64,000 nucleotides of DNA from Octopus vulgaris (lineage: Eukaryota). Below are positions 1,295-53,560 of this stretch, piece after piece; the stretch's first letter is position 1; every line of letters starts with the position of its first letter. The stretch covers positions 74,462,001 through 74,526,000 of the forward strand of contig OX597830.1 in NCBI GenBank assembly GCA_951406725.2, given 5' to 3'. The position numbers and the translations under genes were made by a program. The notes below the pieces were generated by a model. It saw only the letters and a list, made by a program, of their open reading frames with translations, ran no database searches and was not told the origin of the DNA.

Positions 1295-1296
<2 letters not shown>

Positions 1297-1499
1297 CGGG
1301 AAGGTTTACGAAAATAAACAAAAGACGAAGGCAGGTGGAGTACAAACAAAAAATGTATCAGTATGGCGCTCAGGAATAGAAATAGAACAAGTCTTTTACG
1401 TTTCGAGCCTACGCTCTTCGACAGAAAGATACACAGAAAAAAACAAGGAGAGAAAAAAGGAGAGAAAAAAATGCGTGTAGGAGCTAACGATCTATCATG
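1295..1499 (-). mobile_element. Short dispersed repeat (Penelope pLTR-like / retrozyme-like) with a variant hammerhead fold, copy 1
   Basis: Similar to 41180-41390 (-) and 47465-47582 (+); related 3' parts at 10021-10119 and 22692-22792; flanked by microsatellites. Confidence 0.7.
1392..1429 (-). ncRNA. Minimal type-I hammerhead-like motif with A6U core variant
   Basis: Minus strand reads TCTTT-CTGTCGA-A-GAGC(GTAG)GCTC-GAA-ACGT-A-AAAGA: perfect 5-bp stem I, 4-bp stem II, palindromic ACGT stem III, GUA cleavage triplet. Confidence 0.6.
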
Positions 1500-2389: not shown

Positions 2390-2650
2390 AACCTCCCGTC
2401 GAAGGCAACGTATAAGTGCTCAGCTTTTGCGGAACGACCTGCACAAATGATTTGTTTATAGTGATCAAATGTTCGTGCCAAACATTTGCTCATTCCCACC
2501 ATCAAATCCACGTTGCCTAAATAGGTGCGTGGTGTACCACGCTTTAGATGCCGAAGTATGTTGCTGAAGAATACAACGCACTATCTTGTCTAGGAATTGA
2601 AACCATGATCTCTCGATCATGAGTGCAACACCTTAACTATTAGTCATGTG
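2385..2650 (-). mobile_element. Degenerate tRNA-derived SINE
   Basis: Minus-strand head CACATGACTAATAGTTAAGGTGTTGCACTCATGATCG...GGTTTCAATTCC has A/B-box-like motifs and resembles the heads at 23467 and 33629. Confidence 0.6.
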
Positions 2651-2999
2651 TATACATGCATACACGTACATTAGTATATGTATGTGTACAATATTATGTG
2701 AGAGTGTATCCATTTGAACTATAAACGCTCACACGTGATTTTTATCTGTGCAAAAACAAACAAAAACTAATAAAGCGAGAATACCATACATGTAGCGTTT
2801 ACATCTATTAAGGAACATTCTTTTCACAAGACTTTCTGGATTTTGCGGATGAACGTCAGTAATAGCAGAAAGAGTGATTCACGCAGTTCGCTTTCAATAT
2901 CGTTTTTATTGATTACAGTTGAAAGCACGATCGGATTTGTCGCTTTCGTTTCCTATTTCAGGAGAGTCACCCTTTCTAAAGAATTCTTGTACTTAGGAA

Positions 3000-3850
3000 C
3001 TTTAACAACTCTGGTCTAAATTCAAAGGAATTATACGAAACAATCAACAAACATTTTCAAGAACACTTTGTTTCAAGATCTCCAGTCATTTAGATCTATA
3101 GATCTGTATCTCTGTCACAATAAATCTGGAACTCGAAGGGACAAGGCCCGACATGTCCTCTAATAATGTGAAGCATTGTCGAGAGATCTGCTTCCTATTT
3201 CAACCAGTATTGGAGATCTTTAAATTTTCTGTGATATCTCTTATCCGGAAATCAGAATACGTGTGCAATTGTGAAGACTGACGAAGATTCCTTTTGGAGT
3301 ACTTCAAGCCAGACAAATACCGAAATCCCTGAAATTGGTTTTACCCAGTTTACGTCAAAATCATTCTCTAATTCCTCTTTACGGTGGTAACTGAAGATTC
3401 AATTACATTCTTTTAAACTACTACAGAACAAGAATAAAGGAACATATAATGCAGCAATAATTCCATTCATGTGACTTACTTAACTCCTGAGAACTGACCT
3501 TCAAATTCCCCGACATATTTTATATTCATTCATAACGCCTGAAATCTAACACGTGTACCCAACTATTTTGGAGCTGCTCTGCAGCATCAGCTGCTTTACA
3601 TTGGGGATTATTTTCACCAACTCACTTGATAACCTTCAAGATATCTGTTAGGGGGTCCTTGTTGATCTGAATGTGTTCGTGTTGATTGCTTTACTTTGCT
3701 GGTGAATTGTACGACCACTATGTTGACTGTGGCAAGAGGAATCCCAAGATTTTGTAACAATGTTATTATGGCTAAGTGCTTCCTCAGATTGAACTGCAAT
3801 ATGCTTTTTTGAAACCAGATAGCTGTTTCACTTCCGGTATTCTCGGTATT
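3000..3850 (-). pseudogene. Highly degenerate Tc1-like transposase remnant
   Basis: Minus-strand peptides QNLGIPLATVNIVVVQF...GPPNRYL and NPQCKAADAAEQLQ resemble Tc1 N-terminal HTH regions; many stops and frameshifts; boundaries approximate. Confidence 0.45.
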
Positions 3851-4899
3851 GCTAGTTGCTCGAAATAATTAATACACTATAATCTGAAAAACAAGAAAAA
3901 CATTAACATAGCACCAGGTAGCCTCCGCAGAGAGAAAACGGTATTCTACCCTTGAGATGTCTTGTTTATATATGTACATGTGTGTTTGTATGTGTGCATA
4001 GAGAGAAAGAAGGAGGAGAGAGAAAGAGAAATAGAGAGTGAGTGAGTGAGAAAGCAAGGCTGATAAACAGGTACAGAAATAAATTGATTAATGTTCATGC
4101 GTGTTTTAGGATTTATGATTAAAGCTGGGGGGAGATTTTCTGATAAAAATACAGTCATCCACTAAGCTTGCGCCCTTGTGGAAAATCTAATTTTCATATT
4201 TGAACTTTTGACGATTCCAGATTAATTAAACACTGTTATTGCTGTTGTGGAATCGCCTCTAAATAATTTTAGTTTCTAGCATCAAAAATATACATTGGGG
4301 GTATAGGCAAAGCATAGTTTAAATTCATATACAACACCTGGTGGATTCTTGAAACAGACAACAACTCTAAAAGCAGTAGATTTGTGACTATAACAATTTC
4401 CCCAGCAAATTTTGCCGTCACGGAATAATTCGGCAATTATAATTTTATGGTTTTAATCTTTATTAACATTCATGGTTGGTTCAACCTGGAATACAAAATA
4501 GTACTATTCAAGTCATTATTCAATCTGGTAATATTTGAAATCGTGACTCCAACGAAATCTATATCATTAGAAATACGCGCATTCGAAATTGTGTGGATTT
4601 ACTTATAGATATATATGTGTATATAATATCTACACACACACACACAATTATATTTTATTTAAATTTCATGATATGCAACATAATGTTACGTAGGCTCGTA
4701 AATGCACCTAGCTCCTCAAGTGATCAACAAGAGATGAGCCTAATTCAAGATGGAGCCTAGTGAAGCGGCTATTAAATAATACGCATGACTCTTACAAAAT
4801 GTGTTAAATGCCGCTTACTTTCGGTTGTCCACTAACTCGTATATACATATACATGTACACAATATACATACATACAAATGTATATGTAGATAGATAGAT

Positions 4900-5299: not shown

Positions 5300-5926
5300 C
5301 GAGAGCGAGAGACATGCACATACACATGTATGTTTAGCGTGCACTTTAGTCTTGTTGTTGGTTTATGTTTAATGTTTGTATTGATTTTCAGATGTAGACA
5401 AGATCTGCGTCCGGTGGAAATACGATCCATCTTTCAAGACCTGATCCATTTTCATTTCAAATTTTTCTCCCAACCTTCATATATTTCCCTTATTCTATTC
5501 TTTAATAATTTTTTTTTAAATGTTCTTATTATTTTCTGACACTTTCTATCTCTTAATTTTCTTTATTTTTGCTTGTTATTTTCCTTATTTAGTTTATATT
5601 TTCTCTTCATTGTCCTCATCGTCGTGGTTACGATTATCATCATCATCATCTCCATCGTCATCGACGTTATAAATTTTCGCTACCTTCGTTACAGATTTCT
5701 TTACCTCCGTAAACCATATATGTTTGTATGCGTGCGTGTGTACGCGCATGTGTATACACACACATACTAACAAACACACACACACATATTTATCTTCTTT
5801 TCTATTTTATTTCCAGACCTGAAATCGTTTAACTATTGTCTTGCTGGAAATTGAATAAATAATACATTTGATAAGAAAGTAAATAAACATAGCGTTTTAA
5901 ATCCCTCAAGTATAAAACCAAACAAT

Positions 5927-5992
<66 letters not shown>

Positions 5993-6201
5993 TATATATA
6001 TAGATGTATTTATGTATGTATATACATATATGCATATATATATATGTGTGTATATATATGAATATATATATACATCTATATATATGCATATATGCATATG
6101 TATATGTATATATGAATATATATATATATATATATATATCTATATGTAAATATATATATATGCATATATATTTATATATATATATATACATATATATATA
6201 G

Positions 6202-6254
<53 letters not shown>

Positions 6255-6429
6255 TATATATATTTAAAGATATATATACAATCATACGGATATATAGAGG
6301 AAAATATATTCACAACAAATGCAAGCATACACTCTCCCACACGAGCCCACATACTGTACGCATGTGCCCACACTCGCACACACAGAGTAATATTAATTAT
6401 TGTAAACATCAGGGAGATGAGTATTATGA

Positions 6430-6627
6430 TCCTGAAAATGATAATTATGGTGATGATAAAGACAATGAAGAGGGAAACGATGGTCATGACGACGGCGACG
6501 ACGACGATGACGATGATGATAACAAGCATGATGATGATGATGATAATGATGATGATGATGATGATGACAAATATGATGATGATGACGAGGAGGATGACGA
6601 ATACGATGATGATGATGCGGATGATGC

Positions 6628-6995: not shown

Positions 6996-7304
6996 TAAGA
7001 TACTAGAAAAGAAGGAAGTGTTAAAGAAGTTGATTTAAGCACACTAGAAAGAGGATATTTCAAACAAGGACATTTCAAACAAATAACAGCATACGAAGGA
7101 GAAGAAGATGAAGACAAAGAAAGAGAGAGAAGAAAAAAAAATCAAATAGAAAAATAAAATTTAAAAACAAAACAATTTTTTTGAAAAAAATAAATACGTA
7201 CATATAAATATAAATATAAATAAAAACAACCTTGATAGTTGAACCGTAAAATTGAAATTTAAAATCCTTTTATCACCGATGTATTGGGTTGATTGGATGT
7301 ATTT

Positions 7305-23466: not shown

Positions 23467-23469
<3 letters not shown>

Positions 23470-23851
23470 AGGCGCAATGGCCCAGTGGTTAGGGCAGCAG
23501 ACTCGCGGTCGTAGGATCGCGATTTCGATTCCCAGACCGGGCATTGTGAGTGTTTATTGAGCGAAAACACCTAAAAGCTCCACGAGGCTCCGGCAGGGAT
23601 GGTGGTGATCCCTGCTGTACTCTTTCACTACAACTTTCTCTCACTCTTACTTCCTGTTTCTGTTGTACCTGTATTTCAAAGGGCCGGCCTTGTCACTCTC
23701 TGTGTCACGCTGAATATCCCCGAGAACTACGTTAAGGGTACACGTGTCTGTGGAATGCTCAGCCACTTACACGATAATTTCACGAGCAGGCTGTTCCGTT
23801 GATCGGATCAACCGGAACCCTCGTCGTCGTAACCGACGGAGTGCTTCCATC
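23467..23851 (+). mobile_element. Full-length tRNA-derived SINE, family C (resembles octopus OR-type SINEs)
   Basis: A box TGGCCCAGTGG, B box GATTTCGATTCC; close match to 52942-53331; family name is from recall and unverified. Confidence 0.9.
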
Positions 23852-24614
23852 CATGAGAAATGTTGTACCTAAGAAGCATCAGTTGTGGTGTGCAAGAGAG
23901 ACGATTGCGCTGGTATGGTCATGTGGAGAGAATGGATGAAGATAGGTGTGTGAGAAAGTGCCAATCCCTAGCAGTTGAGGGAACCCGTGGAAGAGGTAGA
24001 CCCAGGAAAACCTGGGACGAGGTGGTGAAGCACGACCTTCGAACTTTAGGCCTCATTGAGGAAATGACCAGCGACCGAGACCTTTGGAAATATACTGTAC
24101 GTGAGAAGACCAGGCAGGACAAGTGAGCCCAGCCCACTTATGAATGCCTTTCCTCCCTTGGACACAAAGACCTGTTGAGGCAAGCGAAGTCGATATAGAA
24201 CCTCATCCGACGACAGGCACCCATGCCAACCCCCTTTGCTTGCGAAGACATGTTGGGGCAAGCGAAAGCGAAATCGAAATCGAATTGAACCAGCCAGGAT
24301 CCTTGGTCTGGTGGTACGTAAAAAGCACTATCCGACTCGTGGCCGATGCCAGCGCCGTCTCGACTGGCTTCCGTGCCGGTGGCACATAAAATACACCAAT
24401 CCGACCGTGGCCGTTGCCAGCCACGCCTGGCACCTGTGCAGGTGGCACGTAAAAAGCACCCACTACACTCACGGAGTGGTTGGCGTTAGGAAGGGCATCC
24501 AGCTGTAAAAACATTGCCAGATAAGACTGGAGCCTGTGCAGCCTTCTGGCTTCCCAGATCCCCGGTCGAACCGTCCAACCCATGCTAGCATGGAGAACGG
24601 ACGTTAAACGATGA

Positions 24615-33377: not shown

Positions 33378-33417
33378 CTGGCTGATGACGGCTATATAGA
33401 CAGAAACTTATGTCCAC
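33378..33417 (+). ncRNA. Degenerate minimal hammerhead-like motif
   Basis: CTGATGA (33382)-CGGCTATATAGACA-GAA-AC(TTAT)GT-C; core intact, stem I poorly paired. Confidence 0.45.
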
Positions 33418-41179: not shown

Positions 41180-41390
41180 AGGTGGAGAATTCACACCAAA
41201 AAGAAAAAAACAACAACAAAATACGAAGACAGGTGGTGTAGACAACAAACAGACGTATTAATATAACGCTCGGGAAGTGGAAGAGCCTTTAACGTTTCGA
41301 GTCTATGATCTTCCATAGAAAGGAACTCAGAAAGAAACAAGGAGAGAAAATAAAGAATGTGTAGTGGCTAGCGATCTATCATGGCGAATA
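41180..41390 (-). mobile_element. HHR-like short repeat, copy 2 (motif at 41286-41323)
   Basis: Minus CCTTT-CTATGGA-A-GATC(ATAG)ACTC-GAA-ACGT-T-AAAGG; flanks homologous to 1295-1499. Confidence 0.7.
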
Positions 41391-43315: not shown

Positions 43316-43362
43316 AAAACTGTCTGATGAACGGCAACGAGAAACTCAGAGTAACAGATTTT
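43316..43362 (+). ncRNA. Minimal type-I hammerhead ribozyme with canonical core
   Basis: AAAACTGT-CTGATGA-ACG(GCAA)CGA-GAA-ACTC(A)GAGT-A-ACAGATTTT; GNRA loop II, near-palindromic stem III, GUA triplet. Confidence 0.8.
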
Positions 43363-47464: not shown

Positions 47465-47582
47465 TTTTTCTCGTTCGCTCTCGGTTTTTTTTACCTCTTA
47501 ATCTTTTCTGTCGAAGAGCATAGGTTTGAAACGTCAATGACTTTTCTATTTTTCCCGAGCGTTAAACTAGTACACCTGCTTG
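47465..47582 (+). mobile_element. HHR-like short repeat, copy 3 (motif at 47503-47540)
   Basis: CTTTT-CTGTCGA-A-GAGC(ATAG)GTTT-GAA-ACGT-C-AATGA. Confidence 0.7.
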
Positions 47583-47591
47583 TACACACAC

Positions 47592-52717: not shown

Positions 52718-53560
52718 TTACTTTTTACTTATACTTGTTTCTGTTATTGGTATGCAGCCATGCTGGAGCATCCCCTTCAAGGGTTTAGTCGATCAAATTG
52801 ACAACAGTAATTATTTTATAAGCTTGTTCCTTATGCTATCGGTCTCTTTCCTGACATGCTAACTTGCTGGTACGTAAAGCAACCAGCACCGCTTGTCAAG
52901 CGCTGGTGGGTCACACAAACACAAAATGATCTCACTCACGTGGATGGAAGCACTCCGTCGGTTACGACGACGAGGGTTCCGGTTGATCCGAATCAACGGA
53001 ACAGCCTGCTCCTGAAATTAACGTGTAAGTGGCTGAGCACTCCACAGACACGTGTACCCTTAACGTAGTTCTCGGGGATATTCAGCGTGACACACAGAGT
53101 GACAAGGCCGGCCCTTTGAAATACAGGTACAACAGAAACAGGAAGTAAGAGTGAGAGAAAGTTGTGGTGAAAGAGTACAGCAGGGATCACCACCATCCCC
53201 TGGCGGAGCCTCGTGGAGCTTTAGGTGTTTTCGCTCAATAAACACTCACAACGCCCGGTCTGGGAATCGAAACCGCGATCCTATGACCGCGAGTCCGCTG
53301 CCCTAACCACTGGGCCATTGCGCCTCCACCTTCTCACTCACGTACACGCAAACACAAAACACACACACAAACATACGCGTATTCATAAATACATATACAT
53401 ACACGGCGTACATTTTTCATTTTCGGTCTACCTAATCCGCTCACAAGGATTTAGTCGGCCCGTTGCTGTTGTAGAAGACAGCTGCCCAAGGCGCTACGCA
53501 GTGGGACTGAACCTGGAACCGTATGTTTGAGAAGCAAACTTCTTTCCAGACTATCACGAC
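52718..53560 (-). mobile_element. SINE family B interrupted by a nested family C SINE
   Basis: Family B tail at 52718-52925 and head at 53400-53560. Confidence 0.8.
52942..53331 (-). mobile_element. Full-length SINE family C with 12-bp TSD
   Basis: TSD TCTCACTCACGT at 52930-52941 and 53332-53343. Confidence 0.93.

Follow-up and report, generated by a model that had tools for sequence, protein, structure and literature searches.

A variant minimal hammerhead motif with uridine at core position 6 in an abundant Penelope-like retrotransposon family of Octopus vulgaris

The window, a 64,000-nucleotide stretch of Octopus vulgaris DNA analysed at its full length, contains three homologous repeats that each carry a short hammerhead-like motif. 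Copy 1 is a 5'-truncated pseudo-LTR (pLTR) fragment of a younger subfamily at 1295..1499 on the minus strand, flanked by (TA)n and (CA)n/(TA)n microsatellites. Its 5' end lies 75 nt upstream of C3, its 3' end was read off the window sequence, and it is 90.6% identical over 245 nt, TA tract counted in, to the pLTR of a full element at locus L102. The minimal type-I hammerhead motif of copy 1 (1392..1429, minus strand) is the same as the family state. Stem I has 5 bp, C3 is at 1424 and U6 at 1421, an extra A follows A9, stem II is GAGC/GCUC, the palindrome is ACGU, and H17 is at 1397, with the predicted cut between 1397 and 1396.

Copy 2 (41180..41389, minus strand, ends approximate) is 85.6% identical to the copy at L083 and is grouped by the tree with the G7/U17 subfamily. 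Its motif (41286..41323, minus strand; U6 at 41315) is decayed, with a private G5A change, a broken stem II and a private A>G change at position 1.5. Copy 3 (47465..47583, plus strand, ends approximate) is a short fragment that groups with the old subfamily and is 77.7% identical to the copy at L093. Its motif (47503..47540, plus strand; U6 at 47511) is also decayed, with two G-U pairs in stem II and a mismatch in stem I. Judged from their sequences, copies 2 and 3 represent older subfamilies with private lesions, and both motifs are predicted to be dead. The preliminary description had placed the three motifs at these coordinates and strands with cores CTGTCGA, CTATGGA and CTGTCGA, cleavage triplets GUA, GUU and GUC, T at position 6 throughout, G5A and a stem II mismatch in copy 2 and a weak stem I in copy 3, all of which is borne out by the sequence. 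Its proposed stem-I covariation (TCTTT/AAAGA versus CCTTT/AAAGG) did not hold up. Among 108 copies, 104 carry A at position 1.5, and at position 2.5 there are 56 with T and 50 with C; every subfamily consensus ends in AAAGA, so the AAAGG of copy 2 is a private substitution.

Homology of about 200 nt surrounds the motif among the window copies (copies 1 and 2 match at 151 of 222 aligned columns), and a profile built from the three copies found no additional copy of the ribozyme part within the 64-kb window. In the 2.8-Gb, microsatellite-rich genome, 3,202 sites match the copy-1 pattern exactly and 0 match its reversed control, so the motif recurs far above chance. An Rfam scan of the window returned no hammerhead family among the best 150 of 584 weak matches, the top ones being microsatellite artefacts. 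Folding of the three motifs gave z values of -0.58, -0.28 and +0.63 (copies 1, 2 and 3), and such folds alone are not evidence. Window matches to L102 at 28770 and 42996 were rejected as pLTRs and belong to a separate repeat beside L102. The window also holds an inverted pair of 389 nt and 96.7% identity (23467-23853 and 52941-53328) and further hammerhead-like CTGATGA...GAAAC strings with canonical A6 at 33382-33409 and 43324-43347, both on the plus strand.

By sequence, the three repeats are 5'-truncated pLTR fragments of an autonomous, very abundant, endonuclease-bearing Penelope-like element (PLE). Family copies have a 3' end fixed ~125-140 nt past C3 and followed by (TA)n, whereas their 5' ends are variable, and the longest pLTR copies reach upstream into the RT-thumb and endonuclease coding sequence. 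A protein search for the element yielded 12,146 candidates, 150 of which were scored. Each pLTR of the full elements at the fetched loci contains the motif, in the orientation of the ORF. At L102 the pLTRs (1156-2109 and 5642-6595) are 99.2% identical over 956 nt, both cores read CTGTTGA and the two motifs are separated by 4.5 kb; pLTRs around an ORF with the hammerhead inside were also found at L104, L116, L106 and L113. These results establish the link to PLEs that had been proposed, since copies run into an RT-endonuclease ORF and full elements carry the motif in both pLTRs. The accompanying retrozyme-like option is abandoned because the scattered copies derive from the ends of an element that bears an ORF. 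A non-LTR retrozyme, described as non-coding tandem repeats with a hammerhead in each (bioRxiv 10.64898/2026.07.22.740005), was likewise rejected, as dispersed solo fragments extending into a coding element were found in place of non-coding tandem hammerhead repeats. Fragments of pLTRs lie adjacent, in tandem or inverted at L098, L099, L085, L109 and L059, a few hundred to a few thousand bases apart, which is typical of PLE insertions.

The element has the domain order RT, CxxxxCxxC linker and GIY-YIG. The unbroken 1,098-residue frame of L101 contains an RT that matches Pfam RVT_1 at E 8e-08, together with a CxxxCCxxC linker and a region for the endonuclease. The GIY-YIG match on L102 (E 0.002) is below the curated cut-off, and endonuclease motifs are visible in the translation. 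The Cys linker is present both in P0001, a protein of the U6 family, and in the related element at L300, and the 3' ends adjoin (TA)n. A CX2-5CxxC linker is common to Neptune and Nematis (PMC8557442). Judged by the features of Craig 2021, the element is an EN+ PLE of the Neptune/Nematis type. Its clade is likely Neptune, an assignment from features (linker and (TA)n targeting) rather than RT phylogeny, in which (TA)n targeting points to Neptune rather than Nematis. An apparent RT-endonuclease frameshift shared among copies was rejected as a selection artefact; the tail of the search query also appears out of frame, and the indels vary among copies, so no frameshift is shared. A distantly related PLE family with ~29-34% protein identity to P0001 occurs close by at L230/L285, L108 and L110.

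The family motif has stems I and II, GAAA, a palindromic stem III, an NUH site and a bulge after A9, and 87.8% of its cells are paired. It lacks the consensus core CUGANGA, with A6, and we class it on this sequence pattern as a variant of the minimal type-I hammerhead, not a canonical member. Perfect U6 motifs number 16,091 genome-wide (15,967 + 124), with G17 in only 124 of them (0.8%). When a slightly shorter pattern was searched with any base but U at position 6, 740 matches emerged, and the first 100 listed comprise 75 C, 19 A and 6 G by eye. With anchors outside the core there were 8,931 matches, and among 100 listed, position 6 is T in 96, C in 3, G in 1 and A in 0 (by eye). The 108 core-independent copies have U in 103 cases and A in 2. 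Among 100 listed copies of the old subfamily (by eye), T occurs in 81, C and A in 9 each, and a deletion in 1. That A6 share of 9 in 100 listed copies (the subfamily includes L151-L180) exceeds the expectation from transversion decay and may reflect an A6 sub-lineage or reversion. C6 as a subfamily of its own was rejected because it occurs across all N7 classes. An A6 family consensus was named beforehand as a result that would overturn the preliminary description; the consensus is U6 in every subfamily. We conclude from these counts that U6 is a state of the lineage, not copy decay, throughout the amplification of the family. A loose descriptor found 26,628 non-A6 and 9,137 A6 pattern matches (controls 199 and 111), the former being mostly the U6 family plus a few unrelated repeats. 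A separate repeat that recurs in this loose hammerhead search, at L245, L252 and L258, reads CTGGAGAGTAYATCAGCCGAAACGT.

Conservation was assessed in an alignment of 225 distinct copies, 190 of them in the U6 lineage, using the 108 that were long enough and not picked by their core. Flank columns alone went into the trees, and changes were counted on branches of at least four leaves. Changes per column amount to 0.01 at ten core positions, 0.00 at U6, 6.3 at N7, 2.3 at H17 and 1.09 in the held-out flank. In the published hammerhead core, N7 and H17 are the two sites left free to vary (PMC7151607). Loop II is near-invariant too (0.27 changes per column), so conservation extends beyond the catalytic positions. 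Constrained columns are unchanged in 19 of 19 cases against 51 of 89 in the downstream flank (Fisher p 1e-4, with columns that are not independent), and the subfamily consensuses differ at 35 of 114 flank columns but at 0 of the 28 constrained ones. Of the four longest stretches without variation, three fall in the motif; lineage-level change is likewise absent from 71 of 153 flank columns. Subfamilies diverge from their own consensus by ~4% to 10%, and ~30% of flank columns differ among them. Core and stems thus appear conserved at the lineage level with change confined to N7 and H17, in a test that draws on a short alignment with non-independent columns, few changes and some anchors that overlap stem I. 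Zero change at one U6 column cannot prove selection for U itself. Within the U6 lineage, no compensatory changes were seen in the stems.

A homologous sister pLTR (L267-L300) has a 3-nt loop II and a GUUU/AAAC stem I and keeps A6. Between the U6 family and this sister lineage there is one clear compensatory pair, C-G to G-C at 2.4-1.4, which is one event tallied across many rows (50 hand-picked copies). The sister pattern has 9,802 matches, and the 100 listed include 73 CCG (U4C, core CCGACGA), 25 CTG and 2 CAG cores, with A6 in 99 (by eye). The U4C copy at L300 carries its motif at 7242-7282, and its open RT-endonuclease frame (~2424-4343) shares 68.6% identity with P0001 along 640 residues. 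One sister subfamily combines U4C with a stem-I mismatch, yet it amplified. Two related lineages have each fixed one change of the CUGA turn (A6U and U4C). We infer that A6 is ancestral, from the general hammerhead consensus and not from a rooted tree. We speculate, tentatively, that Penelope elements repeatedly select attenuated hammerheads via the uridine turn, with A6U and U4C arising independently in one genome on an otherwise intact catalytic core, and CUGUNGA working only when switched on by protein, dimer or metal.

The motif is best read as a conserved, slowed hammerhead variant, probably assisted by protein. We put at roughly 0.55 the probability that it is still a slow ribozyme, which would cut after H17 only on ACGU pairing and/or with help from an element protein. 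A hammerhead with U4C is slow in vitro and supported viroid infectivity. A natural A6C hammerhead cleaves slowly with a preference for Mn2+ (PMC3088659, PMC7151607), and cleavage by one PLE hammerhead is reported to be protein-assisted (PMC11167929). In a transcript with both pLTR motifs, the two ACGU segments could pair, and cleavage after H17 would follow; U6 would slow this step as the published A6C does, and a U6-A15.1 hairpin may hold the monomer off. Copies would arise by target-primed reverse transcription that starts at the fixed 3' end, inserts into (TA)n and stops early, on a template that would be uncut at the 3' motif, or circular.

The genomic copies bear on the state of that template. 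They span the motif without a truncation peak at H17, so most templates were presumably uncut there or circular. This fossil truncation test covered 100 listed rows, equal to 30 distinct loci, of 1,451 overlapping matches; by eye, these loci have 5' junctions that abut TA in the vicinity of the cut site, only 2 of which match H17 exactly while 4 lie at the loop II TA. Eight sequence runs, all consisting of contigs, gave among the entries listed no peak of molecule ends and no back-joint at H17. Depth in them was highest over the motif and U was the sole letter given at position 6, but these tables were truncated and filtered and carry no evidential weight. In 52 of 113 copies (L001-L030, L121-L180, L239-L266) the 5' ends cluster ~60-89 nt upstream of C3. 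The cluster is possibly a preferred stop or RNA start, and subfamily divergence may also end alignments there. The predicted probability of the U6-A15.1 pair is 0.98 in L102 and 0.42 in copy 1, and predicted energies are -20.4 kcal/mol for two monomers versus -13.7 kcal/mol for the swapped dimer, with tertiary energy ignored. In such models U6 can favour a non-catalytic monomer hairpin, readable as an off state or as the actual function. Folding of longer context gave no pairing of an upstream CUAC with loop II.

A hairpin with a function of its own is the basis of a possible but less probable explanation that was absent from the preliminary description: a conserved fold without cutting, in which the motif is kept as a structural cis-signal such as a protein-binding or reverse-transcription element. 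U6 would have made a continuous rod of stem II, tandem G-A pairs, U6-A15.1, G5-C15.2, U4-G16.2 and stem I, and minimum-energy folding predicts the rod for U6 copies but for neither A6 nor C6 versions. The conserved loop II and the missing H17 peak fit such a signal, as do the tolerance of U4C in the sister lineage and the finding that PLE ribozyme mutants still insert in vitro, where cleavage is dispensable (PMC11167929). A rod, however, prefers U7, whereas N7 changed ~6 times among all four bases. C3, U16.1 and a non-G17 are kept although they are unpaired in the rod. Of 13 junction positions, N7 and H17 alone moved, an outcome with a chance of ~1 in 78.

It is improbable that the ribozyme simply died at A6U, its apparent conservation stemming from the youth of the family or from few masters. 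Mutants of the CUGA turn have hardly any activity in a published type III hammerhead scan, where low activity was seen for every single mutant and no pair was rescuing (PMC9901934), and lineage-level changes are few, with many flank columns (71/153) likewise unchanged. Against a relic, the absence of change at all 28 constrained columns contrasts with the divergence among subfamilies and in their flanks, and the longest invariant runs fall mostly (three of four) within the motif. The preliminary description had offered either an active core variant or a family that amplified after losing catalysis; the former is favoured by the sequence evidence, and the latter, taken as a neutral relic, is disfavoured by the lineage-level conservation. 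That U6 is copy-level decay, or the element a non-autonomous one of retrozyme type, we consider very unlikely indeed. The A6 minority of the old subfamily (9 among 100 listed copies, by eye) may mark real A6 sub-lineages, but U6 is the majority in each subfamily and is found in both pLTRs of near-identical full elements, which speaks against copy-level decay, and copies continue straight into the RT-endonuclease ORF.

The motif closely resembles the minimal type-I hammerheads of metazoan PLEs (Cervera & de la Peña 2014, PMC4209133), which also lie in both pLTRs, have a short stem I, G10.1-C11.1, an extra nucleotide between A9 and 10.1 and a palindromic 15.2-16.2 without a stem III loop, occur mainly as solo dispersed copies and have a U-rich 5' flank. 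Their consensus is CUGANGAH, with U3-A8 as the core variant noted in the main text, in contrast to the fixed U6 here; supplement file 2 of that work has three CUGU matches, none of them a core. Phage Bcep176 (Perreault 2011, PMC3088659; Naghdi 2020, PMC7151607) offers another natural change at position 6 with low but detectable activity. That change is to C in a single phage example, whereas the octopus has U in a family of >16,000 copies with an evolutionary record. Neptune and Nematis EN+ PLEs (Craig 2021, PMC8557442) share the RT, the Cys linker, the C-terminal GIY-YIG with an internal CxxC, pLTRs, a hammerhead near the 3' end and (TA)n targets; the hammerhead core differs here in being non-canonical. 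The Poseidon element PAc (Frangieh 2024, PMC11167929) is alike in having no RNA or insertion ends at the cut site and an unprocessed RNA template. Protein-helped cleavage was demonstrated for its hammerhead, where the variants noted are at C3 and G8, not at position 6. Small PLE hammerheads that cleave as dimers (Lünse 2017, via PMC6765202) likewise have a diminished stem III. Literature searches, with Lünse 2017, the PMC9901934 supplements and PMC4209133 supplement file 1 outside their scope, found no report of a natural A6U hammerhead, and the main text of PMC11014351 contains no A6U, A6C or 'position 6'. The architecture and host element are already known, and the family-wide U6 core is, by its sequence record, a new and real variant whose evidence of function is evolutionary.

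A natural experiment is at hand in a successful element with a departure from the core at a supposedly invariant position and in its sister, which has canonical A6 and a U4C branch. Set side by side, the three cores could reveal if what selection maintains is cleavage, slowed cleavage or a mere fold. Most of the CUGNNGA-type motifs tallied here (26,628 non-A6 versus 9,137 A6) would escape a search with the standard CUGANGA core, and if U6 cleaves, the hammerhead consensus and its search descriptors would need widening.
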